A stretch of 64,000 nt of DNA from a virus (IMGVR_UViG_3300017774_006254:1-64000); one strand, 5' to 3'; positions 7,121-47,832 are shown, counted from the stretch's first letter. Program-made: numbers and translations. The notes: generated by a model from the letters alone, not told the origin.

Positions 7121-10015
7121 CTACTTGCGCCAGTGCCCTTTGCGAAGCTCGGCGATCTTGTCCATGGCTGCGATCTGAGCTTCAGATACTGAGGAGTAGT
7201 GCTGCTGCTGCGAGTCAGCGTCGATGCCCGCAGGCCAGTCGACTATGTACTCATCGTAACTGGGAAGTATGTATACCTGAGCCGAAGAGTCGTCGTTGGA
7301 CCACTCAAGCCCCTTGAGCGACTTCGTGTCTTGCAGTGGCAAGAAGAGCGAGTTCTTGACCGAAGCTGGGTACCAAACGTACGTGTTCTCCCCCAGAGGG
7401 ATAGGACGCGTCTCATGGTTCCCGCCTTCGCTGTCTCTCTTCTTTTTGAAGTACGTGTTGATCAGCGCCGAGGTGATCTCTCGCTTGGCCCAAGCACTGC
7501 CGTCTTGAACGCCAACGAAGTCGCCCTCACCGAATCCGGCGTGCAGCGCTTCACCAACCCACGTGAACAGATTCAACTGCGGACCAGTGGGGGCACCCTT
7601 CGTTTCCGCTCTCGGGCGTGGGTCCGCTGGCATCTCCTCCACCTGTGAAACGAGGGACACAGCCTGCTTGTCATCTACCTCGTCAAAAAGGCCAGCTTTG
7701 TTCGCCTCATCGTAGAGCTGCATGATGACCTTCGGATCCAGCTCGATGCTCATTACATACAGAGCCTTTTGCGCCTGCTCCTTGAGTTCATCCTTATAGT
7801 TCTTTGCGCTCTGGACAATTACCGATGGTGCAACATCGAGAGTCTTACGGTGGAGCTGCCTGAAGCTGTCCCACCATCCCAGAAGCACGGCGACGCGGCC
7901 GACGATTACTTTCCACGGCGTTGCCTCTGGCTTCTTCTTGGCGGCGGTCTTCTCCTTCTTGATCTCCGCGAACCGCGCTCGCGTCTCGGAGCGAATCGTC
8001 TTCACCTGCTTCTGCATGAACGTGGCCATGCCTCGGTGAGCGGCCTTCATGTTGACGGTCAACTGACTTGCGTACCCCTGGTCATGGTCCTTGAAGCCCT
8101 GCATGTGGGTAATCTCGTGGATGGCCGTAGAGCACAGCTCCTCAATGTCGCTGTCCAAGCTCATATCGAGACGGTCGCCTTCCAACGTCCACTCGTACTC
8201 ACCGGCGTCGTAGTCGTAGCGCCCACGCTTGAACTTCACCGGGTTGATCATCAACCAGTCGGTGTCCTCCTTACGGGTGTAAGCGCCGAGCGCGGGCTGC
8301 TGGTTCATGCCGTCGAGCAGCATGACGAATCCGACGCCGAACGGCCTGAAGTCGCCCAAAGCGTTGAGACCGAACTTGCACGCCTCTGTCCATGCCCGGA
8401 GAAGCACTACGTACTTCTGCTCCATCGTCTCTGGCTCAAGGCCTTTGGGCATCTTCCAGAACGGCATCTGGTTCGCGACGTACAAGTCCGGCTGCCACAT
8501 CGCGAAACGCACAGCCGCCGCGACCTGCTCTGTTGACGTCGCGTGCCCGAGGAAGTTCTGTACGAGGCTGACCACTGTCTCTCGGGAGGACTGAATGCGC
8601 TGAGCGGTTTGCTCTTCCAGCGTCACGGGTTCCGGCGCCCTAGCCTCGTCTTCTTCGAACGCGATCTCGATGTACTTGGAAAGGCTGTCCACGTCAGCTT
8701 TCGACGTCTTCTTCTTCGTGATTTGACCGGCGATCTTCGCGACGGCCTTGGCAGCGACTTCAGCGGCGCGACCCTCACGCACTTCGATTTCGCCAGTGCC
8801 TCGGTAGATCTTCTCCGCCTTCCACTTCTTGGAACGGAGGACCGACTCGGGCTCCTTTGCGAGGCTGGCTTTGAGCTTCTCAACGAACTGGCGAGCGGGA
8901 CCGATGAGAGAGTTACGACTTGCATCGAACACGTACTTCGCTGGTGCGTTCACGTCGACGTAGACGACGCCTGGGATGTTCGGAGCGTACTCCTCGAACA
9001 TGAACACGCCGCGGGCGCGCACATAGAGCCCCTTGTTCGCGCGAGCGTTGCGCTGATGGTGCGCGACAATTTCTCCGACGATCTTCCCGTCTTCGTCCTT
9101 GATCTGCGCGGTCGAGACCTCTTCGCCGCCGATCAGGTCCGCTGGAATCGTCTTGCCGTTCACACGCACTGTGACTCCGGGCAGGTGCGATCGTCCAAGT
9201 AGCTGAAGCGCGTACGTCTCGCTCGTGGTCTGCGTCAGAGGCATCCATGTGGTGATTCGAGTGCCCTGGATGCCCGAGGGCACCTGATGCACTCCAGGCG
9301 GCTCCAGGACGCTCTCGTGCTGCCCCACAGCGACGAGGTCTCGCGTCTCAACCTTCCAGCCGTACCAGGGGAACAGAATGAGGTTCTTGGCGTCGCCAAA
9401 GCCGCCCACGGCCGACTCAGGCTTCACAGACCCTCCGCGGGTCAGCAGAGCGCGCCGCAGGATGTCGGCGTCCATCCCTACGCCGTTGTCGTAAGCGACC
9501 ACGACCATCGCCTCCACGGAGTCGCCAGTTTCAACATCCCTGTACGTGCCAGGCGTGACCGAGAATTCCATCCGAGTCGCTTGGGCGTCGCGCGAGTTCT
9601 GCGCGACCTCACGCCACCAGGCGAGTTCCCAATTGCGGTAGCGCTGAAGAAGCTTGCTCCAGAAGTCCGGGGACACTCCCATGGCCACGAGAGCGTTCCG
9701 ACGAAGCGAGGTGTCGCTAAGGATCTCTCCCTCGGGCACAACGCCCGGTAGCGCCTCGCGCTCTGGAGTCTCCAGCACCTGGAAGAAGAAGACGTCCCCT
9801 TCGACGAAGGGCATCGTCATCCCGCCCTTGAAGAGTGGATGCCACCCATCAAGCGCCTTCACGACTGGATAGGCGGGAAACGTGCTGGTCGTCTGGTAAT
9901 GACCAGGGGAACCCAGGAACGCATCGACGTCGGAGATGCTCTCGATGACGACGGGGTTCTCTCGGGTTCCGGTTTCAGGGTTTCTGGTCGGACGGCGACT
10001 TGAGCGGCGAGTCAT
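7121..10015 (-). CDS. GHKL (HSP90/MutL-like) ATPase fused to an HExxH zincin-like domain, with an Arg-rich N-terminal leader
   Basis: Bergerat motifs REVAQNSRDA, DNGVGMD and GGFGDAK; AIHEITH...H motif; N-terminus MTRRSSRRPTRNP. Confidence 0.75.
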   Translation of the reverse strand: MTRRSSRRPTRNPETGTRENPVVIESISDVDAFLGSPGHYQTTSTFPAYPVVKALDGWHPLFKGGMTMPFVEGDVFFFQVLETPEREALPGVVPEGEILSDTSLRRNALVAMGVSPDFWSKLLQRYRNWELAWWREVAQNSRDAQATRMEFSVTPGTYRDVETGDSVEAMVVVAYDNGVGMDADILRRALLTRGGSVKPESAVGGFGDAKNLILFPWYGWKVETRDLVAVGQHESVLEPPGVHQVPSGIQGTRITTWMPLTQTTSETYALQLLGRSHLPGVTVRVNGKTIPADLIGGEEVSTAQIKDEDGKIVGEIVAHHQRNARANKGLYVRARGVFMFEEYAPNIPGVVYVDVNAPAKYVFDASRNSLIGPARQFVEKLKASLAKEPESVLRSKKWKAEKIYRGTGEIEVREGRAAEVAAKAVAKIAGQITKKKTSKADVDSLSKYIEIAFEEDEARAPEPVTLEEQTAQRIQSSRETVVSLVQNFLGHATSTEQVAAAVRFAMWQPDLYVANQMPFWKMPKGLEPETMEQKYVVLLRAWTEACKFGLNALGDFRPFGVGFVMLLDGMNQQPALGAYTRKEDTDWLMINPVKFKRGRYDYDAGEYEWTLEGDRLDMSLDSDIEELCSTAIHEITHMQGFKDHDQGYASQLTVNMKAAHRGMATFMQKQVKTIRSETRARFAEIKKEKTAAKKKPEATPWKVIVGRVAVLLGWWDSFRQLHRKTLDVAPSVIVQSAKNYKDELKEQAQKALYVMSIELDPKVIMQLYDEANKAGLFDEVDDKQAVSLVSQVEEMPADPRPRAETKGAPTGPQLNLFTWVGEALHAGFGEGDFVGVQDGSAWAKREITSALINTYFKKKRDSEGGNHETRPIPLGENTYVWYPASVKNSLFLPLQDTKSLKGLEWSNDDSSAQVYILPSYDEYIVDWPAGIDADSQQQHYSSVSEAQIAAMDKIAELRKGHWRK

Positions 10016-10286
10016 GCGCAATGCTAGCGCAGCTCGCGCTGGCGAGGAATCTCTGGTCGAACGTCTTCAGGTAGTCGAGGATGCCGGGGCCGACATCGAT
10101 CTTCATCTCCACGGGCGTGTCCTTCGGAACCGTGAGGAACATCTGGGACGGGACAGGTTTCATCTCTGCGAGCCTGACTCGCGGCGTGAGCCTCGAAAGG
10201 GCTTCGGCTCTCCGGTTTTGCTCGTCGATCGAATCCTGAGCGCAGTGCACGAGGTCCGCGATGTCTGCGTCTGGGTGCGTAGTCAC
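9975..10286 (-). CDS. hypothetical protein
   Basis: 103-aa coupled ORF. Confidence 0.45.
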   Translation of the reverse strand: MTTHPDADIADLVHCAQDSIDEQNRRAEALSRLTPRVRLAEMKPVPSQMFLTVPKDTPVEMKIDVGPGILDYLKTFDQRFLASASCASIAHDSPLKSPSDQKP

Positions 10287-10612
10287 CGGCGAGTGCTCCG
10301 TCTGCCAAGGCGATTGGACGTTCTCCTGTTTGGAGTAGGCGCTTCCCTAGGAGGCCATTCCCATCGAGGTTCACCGCTGGCCGCTGGAGTGCTCGATACC
10401 TCTTCCACGATCTCCCCTAGGCACGTCCAGGTTCCACGATCGTCAGCGTGAATTGCTGACGGGTACATGACGTTCAGGTTCACCGTGCCGTCATGGTTCA
10501 CTGCTACGACAGTGGCCGCGAACGGACCGCTCCAAGTGGCACCCCTTCGCTCTCGGTGCCATCTCAGTCGTGAGCTGTAGAAGTGAACGATGCGACCGAC
10601 TGTTGGGTTCAT
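10283..10612 (-). CDS. small phage beta protein (PTVGRIVH...WPPR type) with an Arg-rich tail
   Basis: MNPTVGRIVHFY...AATVVAV...VNLNV...WEWPPR followed by TPNRRTSNRLGRRSTRR. Confidence 0.65.
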   Translation of the reverse strand: MNPTVGRIVHFYSSRLRWHRERRGATWSGPFAATVVAVNHDGTVNLNVMYPSAIHADDRGTWTCLGEIVEEVSSTPAASGEPRWEWPPREAPTPNRRTSNRLGRRSTRR

Positions 10613-10904: not shown

Positions 10905-11807
10905 TCATCGCCTCACGACTCGCATCGTAGCGGGATCGAGCTTCTCCATGTCGGGGTTGAGTCCAGCCGCCTTCCTCATGTCGTAGAGACTGCGTCCCGC
11001 AAGATGCTTGTAGAGGTCTTGGGCTAGTTTGTAAGCCTCGTCCTCATAGAGGTTCTTGGTGAGCCACTCAAGGTCGTGCGCCTTGAACAGTTCACCCTCG
11101 CGCATGCGCCAGTACATCTGGGCGCTCTCAAGCTGTTCTTTCAAGGAGCGGCCGGAGTCCTCGACGGGTCCGAAGCGTCGCAGTTGCCCCCGGTAGAACT
11201 CGTTCAGGGTCTGCCTGGCCTCGATGTTTTCTAGCTCAGCCACTCGTAACGCTTCGAGGGCTGGGCTCTTCTTGAGCTTGGAGACCGAGTGCTTCTTCAG
11301 CAGGGGCGCGCCATGTGCCCTCTGCGCCGCTCTGATCACCCTGTAGAGCTTGTCGTTCAGGCCCTGGTCGATGTCCTGCTTGGTGCTGTCTGAAATCATC
11401 ACCCACGACATCGACGCCCCGGCAGCGATTGCCGCGAACGTCCTGTGATTGCCGTCGCGTACCTGCGCTGTCAGCTCGCCGTTCTCAACGAGCAAGTCTG
11501 CGTACCCGGGCTCAAGCACGACTTCGCCGTGCCGGATCGCATCGACGAGAGTGCTGAATTTGACGGCGTCGAAAGAGTTGCCTTCGATCTCTTCAAGGTT
11601 CTCAGCTTCGATGGGGACCATCGTGCCATCGGTACTCCCGACGTAGCAGACTCCACGCATCGGACAGAAGAGGTCTTCGCCCTTTCGAGGCTTGAGAGTT
11701 CCCGCCGCGGTTTCAGGGAAGAAGTCGCTCAGGTCACCTGGCGGCGCGGTGAGGAGATCCTCCAGGAATCGCAAGTGCCGCGGAAGACTCACAGCGGCTG
11801 GTCCCAC
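10905..11807 (-). CDS. ParB/Srx N-terminal-like domain protein
   Basis: VRDGNHRTFAA motif. Confidence 0.55.
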   Translation of the reverse strand: MGPAAVSLPRHLRFLEDLLTAPPGDLSDFFPETAAGTLKPRKGEDLFCPMRGVCYVGSTDGTMVPIEAENLEEIEGNSFDAVKFSTLVDAIRHGEVVLEPGYADLLVENGELTAQVRDGNHRTFAAIAAGASMSWVMISDSTKQDIDQGLNDKLYRVIRAAQRAHGAPLLKKHSVSKLKKSPALEALRVAELENIEARQTLNEFYRGQLRRFGPVEDSGRSLKEQLESAQMYWRMREGELFKAHDLEWLTKNLYEDEAYKLAQDLYKHLAGRSLYDMRKAAGLNPDMEKLDPATMRVVRR

Positions 11808-14650
11808 GAGTCGATGACCATCGAGTCCAGCATGTCGTCAAACCCTGCCTGTTCTCGCTTCGCCTTCTCGTAATACAAGTGGTCCGCCGCATGACCCGGG
11901 TACATTTCAGCAGGCTGTTCATACCGATTCGGCGTCATCTTCTTGCGCAGCTTCGCCGCGAAGTCTTCGATGTCGTCGTCGATCTCCGCCTCTGCCTCAG
12001 CAGTGGCCTGATCGAAGGAGACGCCCTTGGCGATTTTGGCGTCGCGGAACTGCTCTTTCTGCCGCTCCATTTCTTTGCGAGCCTTCACCAGCTCGTCGAG
12101 GCTTTGCGCCATGTCGATAGCTTCCATCTCGGCCTCGTCGATGAGTTCTGCGAGTGACTCGACCGCCTTCAATTTCGACGAGTCGATCTTGCGACCGTCC
12201 TTGCCAACCATGTCTCCGAAGACGCGGAAGAACGACTGATCGCGCGTCAGGTCTTGTCCGTCGATGATCGCGGCGGCGGTGTCCGTCTTGTTCATGAGCA
12301 TGAGCCCGAGCTTCTGATCGATCGTGCCAACACCGTCGAGGTACGTGATCTGCGCGGTGTTCACCTGGCCAATTCGGTGAATGCGGTCTTCAGCCTGAAC
12401 CTGGTCGGCTGGACGCCAGAGTCGCTCAAGAAACAGCATGTCCTGCGAGCGCGTCAGCGTGAGCCCGGTGGCCAGTGGAATCGAGAACAGCAGCACGTCG
12501 ATGTCCCCGTCCTTCTGAAAGCTCTCGGTGATCTTTGCGCGCTTCGACATTGGCGTAGATCCAACAACAGCTGCCCAGCGGACCTTGCGACTGATGCTTG
12601 GCATCTCGCCCTTGGCCACGTCCTTGTCGAACTGGACGTTCATCTCGTCCAAGCCAGCTCCGATGGCCGTAAGCGCGTCCGCGTGTACACCCATAACAAT
12701 CAGAGGCCGGAAGCCGGTGCTCTCCAAGTGGTTCTCGATTCGATCGAGCGCTGCTTCCACCTTCCCGTTTGCGCTGACTCGACGCATGGCCGTCAGCCGC
12801 GTCAAGGCTTCGGCACGTGACGCCTTCATGACTCGTTCGGGGCCGCCGTGCGCGTACACCCAGGCAAGGAAGTCTCGGGTGAGCTGGACATAGGCGCGAC
12901 GCCACTTCTCGCTGAGGCTCACGAGAATCGACTGCCTGGACTTCGGCGGAAGCTCAGTGAGCACCATGTCCTTGGTGTGGCGCACCATGTACCGCTTCGC
13001 GCGAATGTGGAGTTCCTCCGAGTTGGTGCGACCGTTGGCATTGATGATCTTGCCGCGAGGGGTGTCCTGCTCGAACGCGCCACAGTAGCGTCTGTGGTAC
13101 TCGGCCTGGCTGTTCCACTCTTGCTTGTTGCAGAGGTGCAGGAGCGGGAACAGTTCCTTGGTTCGGTTCATCACCGGTGTTCCCGTGAGGAGCAAGAGCT
13201 TCGGAATGCCGAGGTGCAGGTCGTAGAAGGCGTTCGCTCGTCGCGGCGACTTCTCGGTTGGCACGTGCCTCTTCAGCTTCGGGTCCCAGTAGACGGATAA
13301 GTTCTTGAGGTACTGAGCTTCGTCAGCCAAGAGCGTTACGGCGCCAAGGGGAATGAGCCACGAGAGATGGTTCTGGATGATGTCGTAGTTGATGATGAAC
13401 ACGTCAGCGCGTTTTCGGTCCGCGATGGACGGTTCCTCGCTTCCGACTACGACGTAAACGGCAAGCTCTGGTCGCCACTTCGAGAGTTCGCTGACCCAGT
13501 TGTGCTTCAGGGTGGCGGGGCAGACGATGATGGCGGGCTGGTCGATGCAGGTGATGCCCACGAGCGACTTACCCAAGCCTTGCTCGTCAGCGAGAATCGC
13601 GCGGCGATGTTTCTCGATGAAGGCGACGCTTTCGATCTGGTACGGCTTCATCCCAGCCGGGATGACGCGGTCGATGACGATGTCTTCAGCTGCCTGGCCA
13701 ACCTCGGCAGCGGCCTTCTTTCTCTCTTTGGACGCTTGGCCAGCGATGACCTTTCCGTTGACGGTCTCGATGACCTCGAACGAGTGGAAGGTGTACTTGC
13801 CTCCCTTGGTCTCTCCGACGCCGATGTTCTTCTTGCGGGGGTCGATGAACTGAACGATCGACGTGCCGCCTCCGGGGATTTGGATCGTGTCGCCGAGGCG
13901 GATGCCGGAGGTGTCATCGGTCGATGTCTCGTTGGTCGACTTGAGACTTGGCTTCGAAGGGGCCTTGCCGAAGTCGTCCTCCTTGGGCAACGGCATCGAT
14001 GGCAGCGAGAACAGCATGTCGTCCGTCCCAAACGCCAGCTGGTCGCCGTAGGCCCCCTGAAGCATGTTCACTACCTTCCGCAGTTCTGAGCCATGGAACG
14101 TCCTCCACCAGAACTCCCCCTCCTTCATGGGTGGGGCGAAGAAAATGTGCTTGGACTCGCGAGCAATGCGGTTCCACTCCTCGTTGTAGGGCGTGTGGAC
14201 TTGGAGCGTGCCGCGCTCGGTGGCTCGAAAACGGATGAACTCTTTCGGCGAGTTCAGTCGGAACTTGAGGAGCCTAGCTGCAACGTCTTTGTAGCCGAGG
14301 ACGAGCGCTAGGTTGTAGGCAGAGGCGACAGTGTGCTTCCCCTCGTCGATGCGATTGGCGACGGTGTCGATGGCGCTGTCCCCGAATTCCATCGCCAGAG
14401 CAACGTGCAGGAGGCTGACCACAATGGCATGGAAGGCATGCTCTGGAACAGTGAGCGCGCCCTGCTCCTCGACGTCAGCTCGAAGGACGGGAGGAATCTT
14501 GCTGACGACAGCGTCAATCTCAGCTGCGGACGCTTTGATAACCGTCAGCGGACGGCGAATTGCCTTCCAGCACTCGGGGCAGATGCCGTTGTCCTCGGGC
14601 GTCAAAGGCTTGTCGTCAAAGGCGCATTTTGTGGGTTCTTGAGTGCTCAC
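11789..14650 (-). CDS. SNF2-family (SMARCAL1-like) helicase/translocase
   Basis: ILADEQGLGKS, IINYDI, ADEAQYLKN, LLTGTPVMN, GLTLT, QAEDRIHRIGQ. Confidence 0.92.
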   Translation of the reverse strand: MSTQEPTKCAFDDKPLTPEDNGICPECWKAIRRPLTVIKASAAEIDAVVSKIPPVLRADVEEQGALTVPEHAFHAIVVSLLHVALAMEFGDSAIDTVANRIDEGKHTVASAYNLALVLGYKDVAARLLKFRLNSPKEFIRFRATERGTLQVHTPYNEEWNRIARESKHIFFAPPMKEGEFWWRTFHGSELRKVVNMLQGAYGDQLAFGTDDMLFSLPSMPLPKEDDFGKAPSKPSLKSTNETSTDDTSGIRLGDTIQIPGGGTSIVQFIDPRKKNIGVGETKGGKYTFHSFEVIETVNGKVIAGQASKERKKAAAEVGQAAEDIVIDRVIPAGMKPYQIESVAFIEKHRRAILADEQGLGKSLVGITCIDQPAIIVCPATLKHNWVSELSKWRPELAVYVVVGSEEPSIADRKRADVFIINYDIIQNHLSWLIPLGAVTLLADEAQYLKNLSVYWDPKLKRHVPTEKSPRRANAFYDLHLGIPKLLLLTGTPVMNRTKELFPLLHLCNKQEWNSQAEYHRRYCGAFEQDTPRGKIINANGRTNSEELHIRAKRYMVRHTKDMVLTELPPKSRQSILVSLSEKWRRAYVQLTRDFLAWVYAHGGPERVMKASRAEALTRLTAMRRVSANGKVEAALDRIENHLESTGFRPLIVMGVHADALTAIGAGLDEMNVQFDKDVAKGEMPSISRKVRWAAVVGSTPMSKRAKITESFQKDGDIDVLLFSIPLATGLTLTRSQDMLFLERLWRPADQVQAEDRIHRIGQVNTAQITYLDGVGTIDQKLGLMLMNKTDTAAAIIDGQDLTRDQSFFRVFGDMVGKDGRKIDSSKLKAVESLAELIDEAEMEAIDMAQSLDELVKARKEMERQKEQFRDAKIAKGVSFDQATAEAEAEIDDDIEDFAAKLRKKMTPNRYEQPAEMYPGHAADHLYYEKAKREQAGFDDMLDSMVIDSWDQPL

Positions 14651-37360: not shown

Positions 37361-37690
37361 TCAGTCTTGGTGCGCTCCACGCGACAGGAGCTGATCGATT
37401 GACTTCATCACATGCCGCATGTCCGCTTGGACCGTCGCAATGTCCTCGCGCTTGGCCAAAGTGCCAAGCTGAACCTCCATCGAATTGAAGCGCTTGTCCA
37501 CCTGAGCTTCCAACGCAACGACGGTTTTCGACGAGGCGAAAGCGACCTCAAATTCCTTGCGGATTTTCGCGTTCTCTTCGTCCAGCATGGACTTGACGTC
37601 GTTCTTGATCTTCATCCCGAGCGCCCACAGGAAGAACGGGACGATGATGGTTAGGCCTGTTTGGATATGAGTCCACTCGATAGTCATCAT
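37361..37690 (-). CDS. membrane protein with a coiled coil (holin-like architecture)
   Basis: N-terminal TM GLTIIVPFFLWALG followed by a coiled coil. Confidence 0.55.
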   Translation of the reverse strand: MMTIEWTHIQTGLTIIVPFFLWALGMKIKNDVKSMLDEENAKIRKEFEVAFASSKTVVALEAQVDKRFNSMEVQLGTLAKREDIATVQADMRHVMKSIDQLLSRGAHQD

Positions 37691-38752: not shown

Positions 38753-39142
38753 TTATCCACGCACTTGGATTCGAAGCATAGCTTTCAGTAGTGCGCGCAG
38801 GCCCGGAACCAAATCGAGCTTCAGCGCGTCTTCGGCATCGGCCCAGCGCATGTCGCTCGATTCCCAGTTGGGTTTGGGAGTGCCAGTCCACGCTGTGCAC
38901 ATGTACGTCGTCAGAGTGCCCCATTTACCTCTGGACTCGGCCACTTTTAAGAGCCCTTTTACTCGCAAATTAGCTTCTTCGAGGGTCTCGCGGATGACTG
39001 CCTGTCGCGGTGTTTCTCCGGGATCGACCTTCCCCATGGGGGTATTCCACCGGTCCGGCATCCATGGGGCTGTCGAGCCTCGACGCAGGAGAAGGATGCG
39101 CCCTTGCTTGTCCACAAGGATGCAAGCTGCGGCGTCCGTCAC
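38753..39142 (-). CDS. NUDIX hydrolase
   Basis: ILLLRR...W..PMGKVDPGETPRQAVIRETLEEANL NUDIX box; GTG start at 39142. Confidence 0.9.
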   Translation of the reverse strand: MTDAAACILVDKQGRILLLRRGSTAPWMPDRWNTPMGKVDPGETPRQAVIRETLEEANLRVKGLLKVAESRGKWGTLTTYMCTAWTGTPKPNWESSDMRWADAEDALKLDLVPGLRALLKAMLRIQVRG

Positions 39143-39423
39143 CTGACCGCTCGTCGTGAGTTCTTCTTCATGTTCGACGCGCCGAAAAAGACAGCGGCTG
39201 CGACGCCCACAAGGCCTGCCCAGCCAAGCACCACTGGCCACCCAATAGCCTGCCGAGGAGGTGGCGTTGGGTCTGAAGCTTGCCCAAGAGCCCGAGCTTG
39301 AGCAATCTCCATTGGGGAGTGGCGACAAGGTGCCGTTGAGATCCGCAACTCGTGGGGTCCCATACAGCGACACCTCGACGTCACGACACCGCACCGGCAT
39401 CTCTCGATGTAGTGGCCCATCAC
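39139..39423 (-). CDS. tail-anchored membrane protein, Cys-rich N-terminus
   Basis: CRC..CRC, ALGQ, TM, MKKNSRR. Confidence 0.6.
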   Translation of the reverse strand: MMGHYIERCRCGVVTSRCRCMGPHELRISTAPCRHSPMEIAQARALGQASDPTPPPRQAIGWPVVLGWAGLVGVAAAVFFGASNMKKNSRRAVR

Positions 39424-39719
39424 TTCCTTCGGAAAGCGAAGAAAGCTCCAACGCCAAGCAGGAGCGCTCCACCGATGAGGTACGGGGTGTACGAGACCTC
39501 AGGCGCCTGTCCGTATGGGAGTCCGGTCGCGGGGTTGATCGCGCCGTACGGCATGCCTGTCGCCGGGTTCATTGGAACCTGGCCTGCGGTTGCGGAAGGA
39601 TCGGCAGCTGGAGGGGTTCGCCCCGCTGCGATGAGCTGCGCCGCAGCGGTACCCACTGCGGTCGTAATTGCCGCGACATCCTCAGCTGTGGTTCCCATCG
39701 ATCTTGCGTACGACATCAT
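39420..39719 (-). CDS. tail-anchored membrane protein (MSY type)
   Basis: MSYARSMG; NPATG(M/L)PYG twice; TM followed by RRK. Confidence 0.65.
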   Translation of the reverse strand: MMSYARSMGTTAEDVAAITTAVGTAAAQLIAAGRTPPAADPSATAGQVPMNPATGMPYGAINPATGLPYGQAPEVSYTPYLIGGALLLGVGAFFAFRRK

Positions 39720-39910
39720 CTACTCCTTCGGTTGCGTTTGACACGACGACGAGCAACTGCGTATGCCGCCCAGCTCAAGGCAACCGCTGCGACTCCAAGT
39801 GCGATTGTACCGCCGATGACAGTGTTCGCCACAGACGTGACGGTCTGCTGAATGGCATGCTCAACAGCTGGCGTGGACTGCCCAAGAGCGCGAATGTGTT
39901 GGTAGCTCAT
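39716..39910 (-). CDS. small membrane protein (MSY type)
   Basis: MSYQHIRALGQ; TM; VKRNRRSR. Confidence 0.6.
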   Translation of the reverse strand: MSYQHIRALGQSTPAVEHAIQQTVTSVANTVIGGTIALGVAAVALSWAAYAVARRRVKRNRRSR

Positions 39911-40539
39911 TTTCGCCTGTTCCTTCGCACTCGTCCACGAGGGCTGTAAGCAAGAGACCGCGCCGTCCGCTGCGACACGTAAACGGCCGCCCCAACAAGA
40001 CCAATGGCTACCACAGCCGCAGAGCCGATGATGAGAGGCGAGGTGGGAGGTGTCAGACCAACCGTGTCTGGTGGATCTTGCGGAGATGTGCGCGGCGGAG
40101 GATCGGGGACCGGACCGACCGGATACACGTAAACGTCATCCCGAAGGGGAGGCATGATGATCCTGTATCTGCGCAGAATGATTTGTGATCGCGGGCTGAT
40201 CTCCAACGAGGCCCGAAGCAAAGCATCTCGAATGGAGGTCGCATAAGCCACAGCGGGACGCTCACTCGTCGGCCTCCAGCGCGCATACAAAAAACCACCC
40301 GTGACCCACCTGACATCAAGAACAGTCCCCATAGAAGACAGCGTAGACCGAACGATCGCTTTTGCCGTCTCAGCCTGCTCTGGGGTGATGTTCCTGACGA
40401 CCAAGTTTGCGTCGAGAGCTGGGACAAACCCATAAAGCCCAACGCCAAGCCTCGTGACGCCAACAGAGAGACCTTGGACCTCAGTTGTGTTTGCTGTCGG
40501 AATGGAAACCGGAGTTTCGCCAGAAAGTGCGTAGCTCAT
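39907..40539 (-). CDS. tail-anchored membrane protein (MSY type)
   Basis: Start refined to MSYALSG; TM; VRRNRRK. Confidence 0.65.
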   Translation of the reverse strand: MSYALSGETPVSIPTANTTEVQGLSVGVTRLGVGLYGFVPALDANLVVRNITPEQAETAKAIVRSTLSSMGTVLDVRWVTGGFLYARWRPTSERPAVAYATSIRDALLRASLEISPRSQIILRRYRIIMPPLRDDVYVYPVGPVPDPPPRTSPQDPPDTVGLTPPTSPLIIGSAAVVAIGLVGAAVYVSQRTARSLAYSPRGRVRRNRRK

Positions 40540-41102
40540 CGAAGCCTCCTGCGGCGGTTGAACGTGAGCTTGGACAGCGTCTTGATTCTCGCGTAGTTGT
40601 TCAACAAGTACCCCGCACTCACAGCGCCTGCGATACCGATGACAGCCCAAGCCATGAGCGTGTAGTTCGCCGAACGAACAAGATTTGGTTGCTCATCCTC
40701 AGAGAGCCGAGCGTACTGCGTAGGACTTGATCCCGTCAGCGCTCTGTATCGATCTTCGAGCAGGTTGTACCTGTTGACGTACTCCTGGGCCGGAGAGATC
40801 GATCCTTGCGCCCACCATGTAGAAGCCGTGTGGTTGAACGCGAGCCACTGATTTCGCAGCTCGTCCCAGTCAGCGAGAAACCGCGTGCCGACAGCGTTGG
40901 CTCGAAGCGCAGCTCGCCGTGGGATGATGTCACGGTCAAGAGACGTGATCTGCCCGTTGATCTGGTTCAACCACGCCCTGACTTCGCCAGGAAGCCAAGC
41001 CAGCCGACTCGGAGTCACCAGTTCGCCAAGAGACGAACGATTCGAGCGCATCGAGCACCCGCAACCGAGCCCATGCACGTGCGGGCGCAGTGCGTAGCTC
41101 AT
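40536..41102 (-). CDS. tail-anchored membrane protein (MSY type)
   Basis: MSYALRPHVHGLGCGCSMRSN; TM; LTFNRRRRLR. Confidence 0.65.
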   Translation of the reverse strand: MSYALRPHVHGLGCGCSMRSNRSSLGELVTPSRLAWLPGEVRAWLNQINGQITSLDRDIIPRRAALRANAVGTRFLADWDELRNQWLAFNHTASTWWAQGSISPAQEYVNRYNLLEDRYRALTGSSPTQYARLSEDEQPNLVRSANYTLMAWAVIGIAGAVSAGYLLNNYARIKTLSKLTFNRRRRLR

Positions 41103-41644
41103 GACCGCCTCCGCCTCCTGCGGTTCGCGCGCACCGGTGCTCCTGCAAGCATGAAGTACGCACCCAAGCCAACGAGAGCCGTGCCACCAAGGATCCACGG
41201 AAGGAGGCTCCTTCGACTCACCTCGACCTCAGCAGGCTTCTCCTCCAAAGCTGACTCTGAGGTCGCCGAAGTGTTCCCTTGGGGCCGTGGCGTGACCGTT
41301 GGATCGGCGACCCGCTGGAGAGCCTCAAGACGGGTCGCCAGAGTCTTGGAAACGAGAACACGCGGCGTAACTGCGATGTTCGTTGGGAACGTGGACGGCA
41401 CTGGCAGTCCTGGTCCCGCTTCCGTCAGACCAGCAATCGTTAGGGGGCCTGCACGACCGTCGACCGCGATGGAAGCCTGCCCCCGAGAAGCGCGGAAGGC
41501 GTTGACGGCACGTTGAGCCCAGGTGGCCGTGGTGTCCCAGTACCGAGCGTCAGGTGCGTATGCGCGCCGTTCCCGATCGGGGCCCAAGGCCGTCGATGCG
41601 GTAGGCACGAACGAGTAGTCGATTGCTTGACCCAGATACGACAT
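41099..41644 (-). CDS. tail-anchored membrane protein with a peptidoglycan-binding-like motif
   Basis: MSYLGQ; WAQRAVN...IAVDGRAGPLT resembles PG_binding_1; TM; VRANRRRRRRS. Confidence 0.6.
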   Translation of the reverse strand: MSYLGQAIDYSFVPTASTALGPDRERRAYAPDARYWDTTATWAQRAVNAFRASRGQASIAVDGRAGPLTIAGLTEAGPGLPVPSTFPTNIAVTPRVLVSKTLATRLEALQRVADPTVTPRPQGNTSATSESALEEKPAEVEVSRRSLLPWILGGTALVGLGAYFMLAGAPVRANRRRRRRS

Positions 41645-42415: not shown

Positions 42416-43492
42416 TCAGTCCCATCCCATGTCGAGGCTTCGGACTTCCCCGGGCTTCGCGATGCGCACGTTCTTTGGCTTCAACGTGACGGTCATCCCG
42501 CCGCCCCTGTGGGTATTCGGCTTGCCCATCTCAGTGGCCAGTCGCGTCGCTTCAGTTTTGCTCGAAGCCAAGGCAGTGTTGTATCCGCCGCCGACCCAGT
42601 TCCACACCCACAGCTTCTTGGTGCTCTTGGGACGCGGGTTCCGAGTGACACGTCGCGAACTGGACTTTCGCTTCCGCTTTGGAATCGAGAAGGTCGTCTC
42701 TTGGGTTTTGATCTTGCAGCCAGGCCCGTGGCCGCGCTTGCCCAAGTCGGGCTTGCCACATGACGGACACGGAAAACTGCCAGCGTTCATGCGCATGCGT
42801 GATCGGCGCCTCGACCCGCGCCGACGCCTATTTGGCGTAACCACCCTCTTCGGCTTCAGGGCGAAGAATGCAAGCGCCCCCACAGCGAGCGTGCCTCCCG
42901 CGAGAACACCCCACATCGGGATGCCTCCAACGGTCTGCGTGAGGAAGGTTGGTTCAGCACTGCCGTCGTAGTACGGCTGCGCTCCAGGCATAGCGCCGGG
43001 AATGGTCGCTGGAGTGGTCGCTGGGGCCGGAAACAAGCTCGTCAGCAAGCCCGTCACCGCCGAGGTCGCAGCTGCCCCCGCATTCGCACCGCTGGAAGCA
43101 CCAGGGCTACTGGATGCGCCAGGAGACGAGGGAGGCGACCCGTACGTCCAGGCGTGCGTGTTTGTGACGCGCGATCCTGAAAGCAGAGCTTGAATCTGCG
43201 CGCCCATGCGAGCGAAGGCCTGATTCACAGCTTCGCCAGTCAGCGCACCCGACGCACGGACGGTCACCCAGAGACTGCCCGCGGGGACGCCACCAGGCGC
43301 AGAAGGGCCGCCCCAACCACTGCCGACGATCGTCCCTGGGAACGAAGCTGCGGCGGTACGCAAGGCCTGAAGCTTCTGCTCAGCCGTGCCGTTGGCTTGA
43401 ACAAGGAATCCGCCGACGAATTGCTGACCTGGCACGTAGCTCGCGCCCGTCGCCAAACCACCAAGACCACTGAACCCTCTTGTGTAACTCAT
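42416..43492 (-). CDS. membrane protein (MSY type) with a basic, Zn-knuckle-containing tail
   Basis: MSYTRGFSGLG; TM; VTPNRRRR, MRMNAG, CPSC..H..C, VTRNP. Confidence 0.65.
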   Translation of the reverse strand: MSYTRGFSGLGGLATGASYVPGQQFVGGFLVQANGTAEQKLQALRTAAASFPGTIVGSGWGGPSAPGGVPAGSLWVTVRASGALTGEAVNQAFARMGAQIQALLSGSRVTNTHAWTYGSPPSSPGASSSPGASSGANAGAAATSAVTGLLTSLFPAPATTPATIPGAMPGAQPYYDGSAEPTFLTQTVGGIPMWGVLAGGTLAVGALAFFALKPKRVVTPNRRRRGSRRRSRMRMNAGSFPCPSCGKPDLGKRGHGPGCKIKTQETTFSIPKRKRKSSSRRVTRNPRPKSTKKLWVWNWVGGGYNTALASSKTEATRLATEMGKPNTHRGGGMTVTLKPKNVRIAKPGEVRSLDMGWD

Positions 43493-43848
43493 CGCCTGCT
43501 CCTTGGGCGCCTGTTGGCGCGAACTTGCCTCGACGGCTTCAGGGTGTTCCATGCGAACAGCCCAAAGCTGCCAATCGACAACGCGAGTCCAATCAGCGAG
43601 TAACGCTCCATCCGCTGGGCTCGCTGCTCTTCCTTCGACAACTCCGTGACTTGGCCAAGGTGCGACGACTGAAGGTACGGACGACGCGGTCCGAGATGCT
43701 CAGACCGAAGACGAGGCGGCTGCGTGGTGTAGATGAATTGCGACACCGAGCCCCGCTGACGCTGCGGCTGACTGAGGTCCGCAAATACCCACGGGTTCGT
43801 AACTCCCCATGGCTGATAGCCAAGGGCTCTGTTCACTCGGTAGGTCAT
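43489..43848 (-). CDS. tail-anchored membrane protein
   Basis: MTYRVNRALG; HLGQ; TM; VRANRRPRSRR. Confidence 0.6.
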   Translation of the reverse strand: MTYRVNRALGYQPWGVTNPWVFADLSQPQRQRGSVSQFIYTTQPPRLRSEHLGPRRPYLQSSHLGQVTELSKEEQRAQRMERYSLIGLALSIGSFGLFAWNTLKPSRQVRANRRPRSRR

Positions 43849-44117
43849 CACTCCTCCTGACCGCGGCGAATGCTCTTCGCGACGTTCTTCTTGATACGAG
43901 GCATGAGCCAACCCCAGACCGCGTAGCCAATTCCAATTCCCGTGGCAACTCCCAATGGAATCGTGAACGCAGGGCGCTTGTACCAAGCAAGGGCGCTGGT
44001 ATCGACTTGCCCAACGCCGTACAAGGGGACAACGCCTGCTGCCGCTGTGCGGACGCCGGTCATGTTCTGTGCGTAAGCCTCACGAGCTTGAGGCGTGACG
44101 AAGTCCTGTGCGTTCAT
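43848..44117 (-). CDS. tail-anchored membrane protein
   Basis: LYGVGQ; TM; IKKNV. Confidence 0.6.
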   Translation of the reverse strand: MNAQDFVTPQAREAYAQNMTGVRTAAAGVVPLYGVGQVDTSALAWYKRPAFTIPLGVATGIGIGYAVWGWLMPRIKKNVAKSIRRGQEE

Positions 44118-45541
44118 CGAAGTCCAGCCTTCCTCGCAAGCTTCTTGGCGTTGCGCGTGATCGACTTGCGGTTGCTCCAGGCGAAGTAGCCACCAATGCC
44201 GATCGCTGCTCCGATCAGCAAGCGTGTCGGCGTGATGAACGAAGGCGAGGCGGGAGCCACGGGCTCTGCTGTGACCTGGCCCATGCCAGCGACAGCCGCC
44301 GAGCTGAAGAGTGCCCCGAGGTCACCCTTCATTGCATTCTGGTCGCGCACCAGCGGACCAAGATGCGCCGCCGCCGCCGCCTGCATCGGAGCGCGAGTGC
44401 GCCTTACGCTCGTCGACAGACGATCGAGGTTCGGAAGCGATCCTTTTGACCGAGCGACCCCCTGAAGGTCTTTGACCGTTGCGTGCATGATGGCATGCGC
44501 GAGCGTGTCTTCGAGCGCCGACTCGGGCTGCTGCCCAAGGTCCACGAGCCGCTTGGCTGTGCTGCCAGTGCGAGCCGCTGTTCCAGCCCCGAGAGAGTCA
44601 GCTGCCTGAGCGACGAACCTCGACCGCTCCTTGGGAGCCAAAGACCTCGCCTCCGTCATGATGAGACGAGCGGCCTTCCGTCCGAAAGCTTCGACGTGGC
44701 TGCGTGGACCAGACTCGCTCTGACGCATCTCTGGCACAGGCTTGGAGACGAAGGGCGAGTACCCAGGCTTGTACGAGTTGACGTTCGTGGCCAGCGTCAC
44801 GCCGCCAGCCGAAGGCTGAACGACACGCCACTCATTCGCGGTTGTGTCCCACATCTCACTCTGTTGGACGCCAAGATCGTCTTCATCCGCGAGGTAGGCA
44901 GGTAGCGCGTACTGGTTTGCGAAGGAGCCGTCACGCGGACGCCACGTAACCCCTTCTTCCATGTCAAACACGCCGCTTCCGATCGTGCTCTGTGTCGAGT
45001 CGTTGAACTCGTAGCTCTCGCGATCGTACAGCATGTCAGAGGGGATTCCCTCGTTCGATGGCTGCTGGTTGCGGTTGCCATGCCAGGACGCTGGGGGAAC
45101 CTGAACGTCATCGTGGACTTCGAGAACTTCTGGCTCGTTGTGCATATCGTCTCGCGCGAACTTTCTGGGCGGGCTCATGTCAACATCGCCGAGGTTTGAG
45201 TCTCGGAGTGCCATGTCCGTCCGTTGCATCGAATGAGGGCGGTAGCCTACCGCGCTTCCTGGGCCCCAAGGATACGAGCCGTAGGTGGTCGCAGCCGCGT
45301 CCGGACTGTCCACGTCGTCTGCGATCTTGAATCGAGACATGCCTTCGACATCTGGAGCTGGAGCTGCGCCGGGGTTCCTTCCTGGAGTCGACAGTGTGTC
45401 TTCCTGAAGGTCGTCATCGAGGAACGATGAACCTTGCCCATTGGGACCACGGGCGTAGTCCTGCGCGTCAAGGTTCGCGTTGCCTCGCATGGTCGGAATG
45501 GCCATGTCGCCATCATCGTCAAACCCGTAATCGTTACTCAT
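44114..45541 (-). CDS. acidic, tail-anchored structural protein
   Basis: Acidic disordered N-half; helical domain shared with the 46252 and 46902 proteins; VAGMGQ; TM; ITRNAKK. Confidence 0.7.
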   Translation of the reverse strand: MSNDYGFDDDGDMAIPTMRGNANLDAQDYARGPNGQGSSFLDDDLQEDTLSTPGRNPGAAPAPDVEGMSRFKIADDVDSPDAAATTYGSYPWGPGSAVGYRPHSMQRTDMALRDSNLGDVDMSPPRKFARDDMHNEPEVLEVHDDVQVPPASWHGNRNQQPSNEGIPSDMLYDRESYEFNDSTQSTIGSGVFDMEEGVTWRPRDGSFANQYALPAYLADEDDLGVQQSEMWDTTANEWRVVQPSAGGVTLATNVNSYKPGYSPFVSKPVPEMRQSESGPRSHVEAFGRKAARLIMTEARSLAPKERSRFVAQAADSLGAGTAARTGSTAKRLVDLGQQPESALEDTLAHAIMHATVKDLQGVARSKGSLPNLDRLSTSVRRTRAPMQAAAAAHLGPLVRDQNAMKGDLGALFSSAAVAGMGQVTAEPVAPASPSFITPTRLLIGAAIGIGGYFAWSNRKSITRNAKKLARKAGLR

Positions 45542-45553: not shown

Positions 45554-46252
45554 TCACTTCAACAGGAAGTATCCGACGCCGAGGGTGGCCACAACTGCGC
45601 TTCCGCCCATCAAATAGAGGCGAATCTGCGCACTGCGCGCGTTGGCCTGGTTGGCTGATGCCTGAGCCGCTGCCGCTGCCTGAGCCATCTGAAGGTTCGC
45701 CTGAGCTTGCGCCGCCGCCGCCGCTGCCTCGCGACTCTCGCGCCCACAGTCAAGCTCTCCTCCAGCAATAGCCGATCCGATGCTTAGTACACCGCCTACG
45801 ATTTGACCGTACACGGGAATGACACTGGCCACGCCACCGACCGTCGACGCGCCGCTCGCAATGCTACATGCGGTAGCTCGGTCATTCGCGGAGAACGCGC
45901 CTAGCGCCTCTGCTCCGTGGATACGTGCCGCATCCATCCGAAGCGACTCGATACCTTCGCCACGCTTGAAGTTCGCGATGGCAAGTCGGATCGCGTCGAA
46001 CAAAGACTGGTCGTTGCCTTTTCCAGACGATACGATCTCCTGGTACATCCGATTGACATGGCGAGCCATGCCAGGAGCGATAGCGTCCAGGCTATTGCTG
46101 ATGAATCTGCGGCGTACATCAACTGGCTTCCGTGCCGCTTTGAGTAGTAGCTGCGAAGCGCGCAGTGATGCGTTCGCAAGTACCGCGTCGTGTTGCGCCG
46201 CGGAACCTACCGTCATGGCCCTTGACGGGCGAGCTGCTAGTGAGTACGTCAT
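45554..46252 (-). CDS. tail-anchored membrane protein, paralog A
   Basis: ASLRASQLL...DQSLFDAIRLAIAN; C-terminal TM. Confidence 0.7.
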   Translation of the reverse strand: MTYSLAARPSRAMTVGSAAQHDAVLANASLRASQLLLKAARKPVDVRRRFISNSLDAIAPGMARHVNRMYQEIVSSGKGNDQSLFDAIRLAIANFKRGEGIESLRMDAARIHGAEALGAFSANDRATACSIASGASTVGGVASVIPVYGQIVGGVLSIGSAIAGGELDCGRESREAAAAAAQAQANLQMAQAAAAAQASANQANARSAQIRLYLMGGSAVVATLGVGYFLLK

Positions 46253-46902
46253 TACTTCAGAGCGATCTTGGCTGCGACAGCTAGCGCCAAAATCCCAGCG
46301 ATTCCGACGCCCGCATAGAGTACCGTGCGATTCGTCTGCGCGCCCGTGTTTAGCCTTGCCATCTCTAGGGCGGCGGCGGCCTGCTGCGCGGCCACTTCAG
46401 CTTGTAGGCGAAGGGTCGGGAGGTTGCAATTCCCAATCGCCGCTCCAGCATTCGCTCCTCCGACGATGGAGGTGTCTGCTCCAGATCGAAACGCTCCAAC
46501 CCAGCCGCCCGTGCTCGCTGAGAGCGAGGCACCTGTGCAGGCAAACGTGTTCGCATCCGCGGCGAAGTCGCCAAGCCCCGACATGCCACGAGCCGCCTGA
46601 CTTCCAGCCCATTCCTGTAGGCGATTGGCGAGCACGAGCCGAATCGCGTCGAACACCGCTTGATCCGGAGTGCGCGTGCGAGAGATGATGCCGATCTTTG
46701 CGATCGCTTCGTCTCCCATCTTTGGCCACAGGTTGTTCAGGCGGTTGCGAAGCCAAGCCATTCTGGATGAAGCGTCAACCTTGGCCATGTGGAGCATGAC
46801 TTCGCTCGCCATGAGCGAAGCTTTGCTCACGAACGGATCTGTCTGAGCAAGCTGCCCCGAGACGACTTGCCCGAGCCCAGCCATTGCTTGTGCGTAGCTC
46901 AT
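46252..46902 (-). CDS. tail-anchored membrane protein, paralog B
   Basis: MSYAQAMAGLGQ; ASLMASEVM...DQAVFDAIRLVLAN; MSGLGD; C-terminal TM. Confidence 0.7.
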   Translation of the reverse strand: MSYAQAMAGLGQVVSGQLAQTDPFVSKASLMASEVMLHMAKVDASSRMAWLRNRLNNLWPKMGDEAIAKIGIISRTRTPDQAVFDAIRLVLANRLQEWAGSQAARGMSGLGDFAADANTFACTGASLSASTGGWVGAFRSGADTSIVGGANAGAAIGNCNLPTLRLQAEVAAQQAAAALEMARLNTGAQTNRTVLYAGVGIAGILALAVAAKIALK

Positions 46903-47234
46903 CGACTTCTCCGACGCGACTTTCGGCCGCTTCTGTTCTTGGTGACACCAGGACGCGCAAAGCCTTGCGTGAACGCAATCACCGGGACAACAACAGGGAG
47001 CATCGCGCCCCCAAGAAACCACGCGAGCGTCCACCCGAGGTCGCCGCGATTCCGCTTGTACCCATGGTACGCAGAAACCGCTGCGCTGATAGTCGAGAGT
47101 CCCCAACCAGCAACCACCATCGCTCCTGTCGGTCGGAACGTGACGGTGATCGGAGACGGAACTGAATCGATCGCCTGTCCGAACGCTGAGAGGCCGATTC
47201 CGGGACCGTCGTAGTAGTTCGTCTTGGTGGTCAT
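46899..47234 (-). CDS. two-TM membrane protein
   Basis: AYHGYKRN between two hydrophobic helices; VTKNRSGRKSRRRSR tail. Confidence 0.65.
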   Translation of the reverse strand: MTTKTNYYDGPGIGLSAFGQAIDSVPSPITVTFRPTGAMVVAGWGLSTISAAVSAYHGYKRNRGDLGWTLAWFLGGAMLPVVVPVIAFTQGFARPGVTKNRSGRKSRRRSR

Positions 47235-47235
47235 A

Positions 47236-47832
47236 TCAGTCAATCTCGAAAATGGTGTATTGCTTGATCCGACGAAGCATATTCCCTGTCCGGCGCCCCG
47301 CAACAGGATCGAGGACCCACCACTGCTTCGTGCGGGGATCTTGAGCACGCGCAAAGACGTGCGTATGAATTTTCGGCTCGCCAGCCAACTGCGGCTTGAA
47401 GCCACAAGTGACAAACTGACCTCGGGCCCCGATTGTCAGACAAGATGTAGCAATCGCGAGAGCGATGTCGTCACAGTCGCAAGCGGCACGCCCCGCAAGG
47501 GCATCAGCCAGAATACGGTCGGGACTGCGAATCAGCTCAACGTGCAGAGGATCGCGCGTGTACCTGGTTGCGTTTCCCCACCAGCGGGAGATCGCGATGC
47601 ACTCGCTCGAATAGTCCTTCGGCCGCACGTTGTTGATGATCTGTTCCGTGTGTCTGCGGAAACTGATACTGCGCTCCCCCTGCAACGCATTCTGCACCAT
47701 CACTCGCGGGTCGACGAGACCCTTTGCGAGGTTGATCATCACGGCAACAGTGTGATCAGTACCTCGGTATGGTTCCGTGGTACCAACTGCGTTGTTGTAG
47801 GTCGGTGAGTATGAGTTTGCTCTGAGCTGCAT
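47236..47832 (-). CDS. transglutaminase-like (papain-fold) cysteine enzyme, putative maturation protease
   Basis: RYTRDP..VELI.SP, CDCDDIA (Cys), HTHVF (His), WWVLDP (Asp). Confidence 0.8.
   Translation of the reverse strand: MQLRANSYSPTYNNAVGTTEPYRGTDHTVAVMINLAKGLVDPRVMVQNALQGERSISFRRHTEQIINNVRPKDYSSECIAISRWWGNATRYTRDPLHVELIRSPDRILADALAGRAACDCDDIALAIATSCLTIGARGQFVTCGFKPQLAGEPKIHTHVFARAQDPRTKQWWVLDPVAGRRTGNMLRRIKQYTIFEID

Follow-up and report, generated by a model that had tools for sequence, protein, structure and literature searches.

A hydrophobic-x-x-asparagine motif beside arginine-rich segments of unrelated proteins is a candidate processing site in a family of large viruses

The analysed window comprises the first 64 kb of a 161,502-bp virus record from IMG/VR (IMGVR_UViG_3300017774_006254:1-64000), which has direct terminal repeats and a G+C content of approximately 60%. 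Between positions 7,121 and 47,832, otherwise unrelated proteins, of which the virus as a whole has about twenty, carry the same short peptide tag, [V/I/L/M]-x-x-Asn (asparagine, Asn), mostly beside a run of arginine (Arg), and the same region encodes a protamine-like protein of 921 residues with many copies of the motif, as well as a cysteine (Cys) enzyme that is a candidate for acting on it. Genes were called over the whole genome with a codon-usage model, which gave 243 proteins, and a few starts were corrected by hand. The relatives used were G001 (complete, 171 kb), compared gene by gene, and partial loci of ten others. Matches to Pfam and PHROGs were sparse and included an SNF2 helicase, a PcfJ-like domain, a DnaJ domain and a muramidase; further family matches were two more helicases, a glycosyltransferase and an HNH-endonuclease-like family, and Pfam additionally recognised a tyrosine integrase and an SprT-like zincin. 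Pfam and PHROGs gave no match for the Cys enzyme, for the 921-, 808-, 475-, 284- and 314-residue proteins or for most others. The hallmarks of tailed phages (terminase, portal and capsid) were not found among the approximately 30 proteins run, the sole exception being a weak terminase-labelled PHROG match within a helicase-like protein. A tblastn search of a phage collection with the 921-residue protein gave no match, the ESM Atlas returned unnamed viral clusters only, and no description of the [VILM]xxN tag or of this virus family was found in the literature.

The tagged genes lie on the minus strand unless stated otherwise. The Cys enzyme (47236-47832), a candidate (unproven) processing enzyme of 198 residues with a Cys-His-Asp triad and a predicted transglutaminase-like fold, is directly followed by the gene of a 111-residue membrane protein (46899-47234) ending in VTKN and then RSGRKSRRRSR (46935-46946). 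Further downstream, ITRN precedes AKKLARKAGLR at the end of the 475-residue protein 44114-45541 (44150-44161; ITRN, IQRN, LMRN, IAKN or MKRN in relatives), and IKKN precedes VAKSIRRGQEE in the 89-residue protein 43848-44117 (43884-43895; MKKN at the same place in locus L012). A series of transmembrane (TM) proteins ends in the same manner: VRAN then RRPRSRR in a 119-residue protein (43489-43848, tag at 43513-43524; MAAN then RKRSRRSR in G001), VRAN then RRRRRRS in a 181-residue protein (41099-41644, tag at 41123-41134), LTFN then RRRRLR in a 188-residue protein (40536-41102, tag at 40557-40568; LAFN then GRRSRRRKRSR in locus L010), VRRN then RRK in a 210-residue protein (39907-40539, tag at 39919-39930), VKRN then RRSR in a 64-residue protein (39716-39910, tag at 39731-39742) and MKKN then SRRAVR in a 57-residue protein (39139-39312, tag at 39160-39171). 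Three internal sites, VTPN-RRRRGSRRRSR, MRMN-AGSF and VTRN-PRPK (42638-42841), divide protein 42416-43492 into a TM body, a zinc-ribbon module and a C-terminal domain. Two more C-terminal tags are found on a soluble 216-residue protein (29470-30120), where IQAN (29515-29526) is followed by RRKRSSRRRSSRRR to the end of the protein, and on a 109-residue protein (10283-10612) that ends in PTPN-R-RTSN-RLGRRSTRR (10328-10339). In the SNF2 helicase (11789-14650), MTPN-R (11927-11938) lies in the linker before the last 45 residues, and G001 has MKPN-R in an indel-rich linker. All the C-terminal examples of the original prediction were thus recovered, including the helicase site and the internal VTPN and VTRN sites.

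The proposed N-terminal examples fared less evenly. Some have support from G001: LAPN-G (38314-38325), near the N-terminus of protein 37687-38355, corresponds to LKPN-P despite an unrelated leader; ILKN-F (33815-33826) after the leader MARRRTSRKNARSKRGVRR in protein 33068-33883 corresponds to VHRN-ARK-VLRN-L; and PTRN-P (9980-9991) after the leader MTRRSSRR of the 964-residue HExxH protein 7121-10015 corresponds to TRRSSKRRSSRRS-MTRN-F. In the plus-strand protein 16645-17436, VRPN-P (16711-16722) follows the leader MRTSRRRTSRRRTSRRPESRRS; the G001 ortholog lacks this site and carries a C-terminal PVPN-RRRKTSRRRSSRMRS tag instead. The remaining N-terminal examples are weak. RRPN-P, within the N-terminal MPRQPRRPNP of the J-domain protein 24401-24982 (24956-24967), has R at position -3 and no ortholog was found, while MQPNA (19613), VKRNL (21741) and MRANG (36766) hinge on the choice of start codon and have no ortholog support. 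Position -3 is likewise occupied by P in PTRN and PTPN and by R in RTSN.

The preference for a hydrophobic residue three positions before Asn was evaluated over the whole genome. Among 113 Asn in a basic context, 52 (46%) had V, I, L or M at -3, whereas these residues occupied the remaining offsets between -6 and +6 in 9-19% of cases, and -3 in 24% of the other 1,248 Asn (binomial p = 6e-8, or 5e-4 without the 921-residue protein). Strongly basic C-termini, defined by 5 or more R/K among the final 10 residues, were present in 25 proteins, and 13 of these contained [VILM]xxN in the last 22 residues, as against 2.5 +/- 1.4 after shuffles preserving the composition of each tail (maximum 8 in 5,000). 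The strict form of the motif, immediately preceding at least 3 R/K, occurred in 11 of the 25 tails, compared with 0.55 +/- 0.72 in the shuffles (maximum 5); in G001 the corresponding values were 11 observed and 1.0 expected. The enrichment that had been postulated therefore holds against composition-matched controls. At the level of BLAST, the carriers are also unrelated, as had been claimed: among 26 tagged proteins with their termini removed, a single similar pair was identified, 33068-33883 and 33931-36696. The codons for the hydrophobic residue, for Asn and for Arg vary from tag to tag, and an origin of the tags as a DNA repeat was therefore rejected; selection acts on the peptide.

Several features of the tags characterise the recognised element. 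The Arg run follows the motif at C-termini and precedes it at N-termini, the direction of the motif being constant, which indicates that the recognised element is the motif itself and not Asn followed by Arg. Aligning the tails at the first residue of the Arg run, and not at Asn, blurred the profile, because basic residues also precede the motif; the shuffles were therefore relied on. Proline (Pro) is frequent directly before Asn (VRPN, VTPN, VSPN, MQPN, LRPN, MTPN and LAPN). Pro after Asn, considered as a hint of self-cleavage, was dropped, since 4 of the 52 sites have it, which is no significant enrichment under the strict motif definition. AGG makes up 33% of the Arg codons in the tails, compared with 11% in the genome as a whole, and the next gene often starts shortly after the tail (e.g., 41099-41134), so that a portion of the Arg run also acts as a Shine-Dalgarno-like sequence. 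The tags cluster in two blocks (7-52 kb and 96-125 kb), and TM proteins carry them more often than other proteins do (odds ratio 5.5, p = 4e-4). The proteins of these blocks are basic, with a median isoelectric point (pI) of 9.2 and 8.7, compared with 6.1 and 6.3 elsewhere. Seven more clear tags are located outside the window, at 96.6, 108.3, 111.8, 114.8, 116.9, 117.2 and 154.8 kb. The plus-strand replication-type genes after 52.7 kb had been described as lacking the tag, and no convincing copy was found on them within the window.

Comparison of relatives whose Cys enzymes are 51-85% identical indicated that the hydrophobic residue and Asn are kept across the family, whereas variation affects the two positions in between, the one that follows Asn and the length of the tail. 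The orthologs of the 111-residue protein 46899-47234 end in VTKN, VSKN, MTRN, VTRN, ISAN, VKSN or MRSN, and their Arg runs of 8-15 residues contain insertions. Tags are gained, lost, doubled (VAKN-RRR-VRRN-RRR...) or shifted from the N- to the C-terminus between orthologs. The motif is also kept without a following Arg run in indel-rich linkers, as in the helicase (MTPN/MKPN) and in 37687-38355 (LAPN/LKPN). Modules are swapped between carriers exactly at the motif, as seen for a zinc ribbon and a soluble domain when 42416-43492 is compared with 151725-152492 and 153487-154326 of G001. The zinc-ribbon module PCPxCGxPxLGKxGHGxGC follows MRMN in 42416-43492 and follows MRRN of another membrane protein in G001, where the counterpart of 42416-43492 has a body that stops soon after VTAN-R. 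The 57-residue protein 39139-39312 has an ortholog in G001 that is extended by a soluble domain after VKAN-Rn-LRRN-P, and VARN-PYYH, which stands after an Arg leader here, corresponds to LVMN-PYYH after an unrelated 250-residue domain in G001. The motif thus separates protein bodies from Arg runs and marks fusion junctions, a placement that fits a processing site. Taken together, the sequence comparisons support [VILM]xxN as a real peptide-level module that occurs family-wide on otherwise unrelated proteins.

The highest density of sites is found in the 921-residue protamine-like protein (33931-36696), whose Arg/Ser-rich region spans approximately 560 residues. The original prediction had counted about 20 copies; V, I, L or M is present at -3 for 17 of the 21 Asn of the basic region, compared with a shuffle mean of 2.5 and a maximum of 10 in 20,000. 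In the G001 ortholog, 14 of 20 Asn fit, the site positions being conserved and the lengths of the Arg blocks variable. The hydrophobic C-terminal domain of the protein starts right after VRRN-G. The adjacent 271-residue protein 33068-33883 is a paralog of this domain, and its domain starts right after ILKN-F. The two proteins share the ending GYAGGVFARH(L/I)F(G/S)GML, and their genes contain short stretches of mutual DNA similarity.

More than 150 homologs of the Cys enzyme (57-85% identity) were found in metagenomes, on contigs of up to approximately 298 kb. In all relatives that were examined, the operon of tagged membrane proteins begins with the gene for this enzyme, whose predicted fold is compatible with a protease. 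C120, H158 and D175 are invariant in 70 homologs (58-85% identity) and occur in the order Cys-His-Asp. Its own LRAN, which had been counted among the tags, is not conserved in these homologs (LRAA, LRAH, LRSA etc.). The protein is basic (pI 9.4). An AlphaFold model (mean predicted local distance difference test 80, predicted template modelling score 0.81) matched, in Foldseek, the putative cysteine proteases 3kd4 (E-value 1.6e-4) and 3isr, as well as the peptide:N-glycanase (PNGase) 2f4m, TglA, LapG, TGM2/3 and TgpA, with probabilities of 0.9-1.0. By modelled fold and triad only, the enzyme is placed in the transglutaminase-like (papain-like) superfamily. PF01841 (Transglut_core) matched neither the enzyme nor the six-frame translated genome, and one homolog (P0108) bears a precomputed PF01841 label. 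Insensitive six-frame scans of the genome for legumain (PF01650), caspase (PF00656), trypsin-like and Ulp1-like (PF02902) families were all empty; since they also missed the Transglut_core fold, which is known to be present, they carry little weight. The Cys enzyme itself is of neither the legumain nor the adenain type, judging from its modelled transglutaminase-like fold and, as regards adenain, its Cys-His-Asp order. Repeated matches of the enzyme profile to designed Kelch-like 'SAKe' proteins among the PDB sequences were discarded as spurious. A complex prediction of the enzyme with the last 36 residues of 29470-30120 gave a score of 0.03, which is without weight either way.

A second motif, an N-terminal MSY-x(2-20)-[G/A/S]-[L/M]-G-Q, is shared by the same tail-anchored membrane proteins (window 21089-21700, 39139-39312, 39716-39910, 41099-41644, 46252-46902 and 46899-47234; genome 104522, 109775 and 124337). 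LGQ occurred within the first 30 residues of 7 proteins, compared with approximately 1.4 by a rough estimate from residue frequencies, and the orthologs of the 111-residue protein keep it as ...ALGQAADS. A second candidate for a processing enzyme is an SprT-like zincin (genome 154755-155798, minus strand; locus L009:4755-5798; Pfam E-value 1.1e-11), a member of a family of DNA-dependent proteases. It begins with an Arg-rich leader and VARN-P and has an internal MLWN-G followed by a Lys/Arg-rich linker, and its first domain is fused to other partners in G001. Additional HExxH (zincin-like) proteins are encoded at genome positions 68499, 100662 and 126508, besides 7121-10015.

The gene adjoining that of the 921-residue protein encodes a highly conserved 270-residue protein (32093-32905, minus strand; 82% identity in G001), whose true start lies 14 codons inside the longest open reading frame. 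The protein is predicted to form a jelly roll, with the best matches to the capsid protein of Sulfolobus polyhedral virus 1 (SPV1; Z score 8.6) and P23-77 VP17 (Z score 7.6), followed by HCIV-1 and HHIV-2. All of these are capsid proteins with a single jelly roll from viruses that contain a membrane, although the scores are only moderately above background. These structural matches support a non-tailed, membrane-containing particle with an unusually large genome. SPV1 (Portogloboviridae) has a single jelly-roll shell, a lipid layer on the inside and a core of nucleoprotein (PMC8459092). Membrane proteins and a basic, DNA-condensing protein are common to SPV1 and, by prediction, the present virus; in contrast, the SPV1 genome is archaeal and has 20 kb versus 161 kb here, and no such tag has been described for it. 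Since the tagged blocks are basic and rich in membrane proteins and lie beside capsid-like jelly-roll and protamine-like proteins, a virion or core role of the tagged proteins is plausible.

We infer, with a probability of roughly 0.4, that a viral endopeptidase cleaves DNA-tethered proteins after the Asn of the motif. [V/I/L/M]-x-x-Asn would then be a short linear recognition site between folded or membrane-embedded bodies and Arg-rich nucleic-acid-binding segments, and the Arg runs would tether approximately 25 virion-associated proteins, together with the 921-residue protein, to the packaged DNA or core. The virus-encoded enzyme would require a hydrophobic P4 and Asn at P1, leaving P3, P2 and P1' free, and the cut would release short oligo-Arg peptides, chop the 921-residue precursor into protamine-like pieces and separate fused modules. 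The pattern is that of a protease site: two fixed residues three apart with free neighbours, a constant direction, placement in linkers and at junctions, and Pro before Asn, which favours an extended peptide over a helix, as in protease substrates. The Cys enzyme is the most conserved candidate for the processing enzyme, this choice being weaker than the cleavage reading itself. In its fullest form, the proposal is a convergent, adenovirus-like core maturation in widespread prokaryotic viruses of approximately 150-300 kb, probably non-tailed and membrane-containing, in which DNA-tethered substrates would be processed by an endopeptidase that has a transglutaminase fold and is specific for Asn (at P1, with a hydrophobic P4), cutting the 921-residue polyprotein and trimming the oligo-Arg 'sled' tails of approximately 25 membrane proteins and enzymes, with the tag serving as a portable loading handle. 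As a complete scheme, we regard this as unlikely.

A number of observations weigh against cleavage. In several membrane proteins, such as those ending in VRRN-RRK and VKRN-RRSR, Asn is followed by no more than 3-4 residues and the motif is preceded by basic ones as well, so that a cut would remove little and the basic patch would stay. Among the 25 basic C-termini, 10 lack Asn in the last 18 residues, and the relatives furthest removed (51-54% enzyme identity) also have some basic tails without it. No depletion of the motif was seen where proteins of the tagged modules are folded (22% versus 26%), a comparison that carries little information. Peptidases of papain or transglutaminase fold usually read P2, and not P4 together with P1, and many endopeptidases reject Pro after the scissile residue, which is present in a few of the sites. 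The xLGQ motif carries a Gln and is a plausible substrate of a true transglutaminase, which it would suit no less well than the Asn tag does, so that the two motifs compete for the Cys enzyme. This enzyme could equally be a true transglutaminase or an amidase acting on this Gln.

Some of these observations fit the main rival explanation, a permanent basic anchor, in which the whole patch, including the hydrophobic residue and Asn, would bind nucleic acid (or acidic lipid or the capsid) uncleaved, with Asn contacting bases or phosphates. Such a contact is made by the single Asn of the arginine-rich motif ARRNRRRR of human immunodeficiency virus (HIV) Rev. Apart from the short tails, the basic residues on both sides and the C-termini without Asn, this explanation draws on the frequent VRRN-RRR(R) and on tandem 7-residue units (VAKN-RRR-VRRN-RRR), which resemble repeated binding modules, and a single TM segment with a cytoplasmic basic tail is an ordinary membrane topology. 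It leaves unexplained the motifs at fusion junctions or without a following Arg run (MTPN-RYEQPAEM, LAPN-GSTL, ILKN-FLDSD and VARN-PYYH), as well as the hydrophobic residue at -3 of nearly every Asn in the basic region of the 921-residue protein, and Pro before Asn speaks against a helical arginine-rich motif. We consider a permanent anchor possible but doubtful. Docking, with the tag as a sorting peptide recognised by an assembly factor (such as a scaffold, the coat of a membrane vesicle or a packaging complex) and no covalent change, would suit a modular tag that is gained, lost and moved between termini among orthologs and restricted to two blocks of basic and membrane proteins. Approximately 17 copies in one protamine-like protein are nevertheless hard to read as docking sites, no candidate receptor was identified, and this alternative appears improbable.

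The fold of the Cys enzyme raises a further possibility, since members of its family (transglutaminases and peptide:N-glycanase) have Gln or modified Asn side chains as their targets, and the invariant Asn is the only constant polar non-basic residue of the tag. The enzyme might form Asn-Lys isopeptide cross-links between the tails and capsid, core or membrane proteins, or deamidate Asn to Asp and thereby loosen DNA binding. We know of no transglutaminase that uses Asn as the acyl donor, a cross-link would need neither the placement at junctions nor the reversal of the Arg side, and the N-terminal xLGQ would offer a conventional Gln donor instead; side-chain chemistry on Asn is accordingly quite improbable. 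Finally, the tags could be a functionless by-product of low-complexity Arg tails made by slippage, of overlap with Shine-Dalgarno sequences or of hidden paralogy among small membrane proteins. The AGG-rich tails abutting the start of the next gene, the tandem VRRN-RRR units and the common plan of many carriers (MSY N-terminus and C-terminal TM segment) point in this direction. On the other hand, the shuffles, the differing synonymous codons and the conservation of the hydrophobic residue and Asn among changing neighbours largely exclude this explanation, and tags are also found on a helicase, zincins, a J-domain protein and soluble proteins without mutual similarity; it retains a very small probability.

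The proposed cleavage after Asn was compared with known systems. The nearest working precedent is adenovirus, where adenain (AVP) cuts pVII, pre-mu, pVI, pIIIa, pVIII and pTP on DNA at (M/I/L)XGX-G or (M/I/L)XGG-X (PMC3386624, PMC4246237), and this DNA-sliding protease processes DNA-bound basic precursors, freeing a basic C-terminal peptide (pVIc, which contains KRRR and slides on DNA; PMC4246237). The two systems have in common a hydrophobic residue four before the (here putative) cut and one fixed residue near it, Arg-rich precursors (DNA-bound core or membrane-lytic proteins in adenovirus, and proteins that would bind DNA here) and a capsid of the jelly-roll lineage (predicted here). They differ in the fixed residue, which is Asn instead of the Gly of the adenain consensus, in the candidate enzyme (transglutaminase-like with Cys-His-Asp, versus clan CE with His-Glu-Cys; an insensitive search gave no Ulp1/adenain match) and in the prokaryotic host. 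The original prediction had instead drawn a parallel with phage T4, whose internal proteins carry a capsid-targeting sequence removed by the prohead protease gp21 (PMC9958956). The likeness is formal: a short transferable terminal peptide is common to otherwise unrelated proteins, and T4 removes its peptide after assembly. The motif, the protease class and the type of virus differ, as the T4 signal, a peptide of about 10 residues that suffices for loading foreign proteins, is exclusively N-terminal, not Arg-rich and cleaved by a tailed phage's serine protease, whereas the tag described here is mostly C-terminal, Arg-rich and also located at internal junctions, in a virus with no tailed-phage hallmark in the proteins run.

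The order of a hydrophobic residue, two free residues, an amide residue and a (putative) cut also resembles the sites of the picornavirus-type 3C/3CL proteases, which have a small or hydrophobic P4 and Gln at P1 (AxxQ/G) and, in picornaviruses, lie in polyprotein linkers. Here, Asn takes the place of Gln, an insensitive search detected no chymotrypsin-like protease, and the virus is a DNA virus of prokaryotes. A strict Asn at the putative P1 with loose neighbours is reminiscent of legumain (C13), some members of which also ligate; however, insensitive searches of the genome gave no C13/C14 match and the identified Cys enzyme has another fold. Sortase, exosortase and archaeosortase signals likewise join a short C-terminal motif to a TM helix and a basic cluster and mark many unrelated proteins within one genome, but in the order motif-TM-basic cluster, while the order here is TM-motif-basic cluster, many tagged proteins have no TM segment, and N-terminal and internal copies exist. 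In asparagine peptide lyases, Asn lies in a structured active site and forms a succinimide; the tags are located in low-complexity, probably disordered segments. VRRN-RRRR is similar to the helical arginine-rich motif of the Rev/N-peptide type, but Pro is frequent before Asn in the tags, and some copies of the motif have no Arg run behind them.

Should the motif serve as a signal for processing or loading, it would constitute the first maturation grammar based on Asn in a prokaryotic virus and a second, independent example of basic precursors that are processed 'one-dimensionally' while bound to DNA, and four residues with an Arg run would constitute a portable tag for loading cargo into a large particle. 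If it is never cut, the conserved hydrophobic-x-x-Asn in Arg tails would represent a new short nucleic-acid- or membrane-anchoring motif. The tag is also of value for annotation, as it allows the probable virion or core proteins to be listed from sequence in a scarcely annotated family that has no cultured member.

Contigs of the family (loci L026-L032) were binned in metagenome-assembled genomes (MAGs) labelled Acidobacteriota, Clostridia, Nannocystaceae, Planctomycetota, Phycisphaeraceae, Patescibacteria and Saccharibacteria. As these MAGs belong to six different phyla, the host cannot be named, and the labels probably reflect mis-binning. In a 298-kb relative, a Fic/MazE-like pair is inserted directly upstream of the Cys-enzyme gene (locus L014:9154-9857). 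The tyrosine integrase/recombinase is encoded beside the second block of tagged membrane proteins (genome 105618-106661, minus strand; locus L006:9618-10661; Phage_integrase E-value 5.5e-22; 74% identity in G001). Within the membrane-protein cluster of the window, a putative Nudix-like hydrolase motif, GETPRQAVIRETLEEANL, was read by eye in the protein encoded at 38753-39142 on the minus strand.

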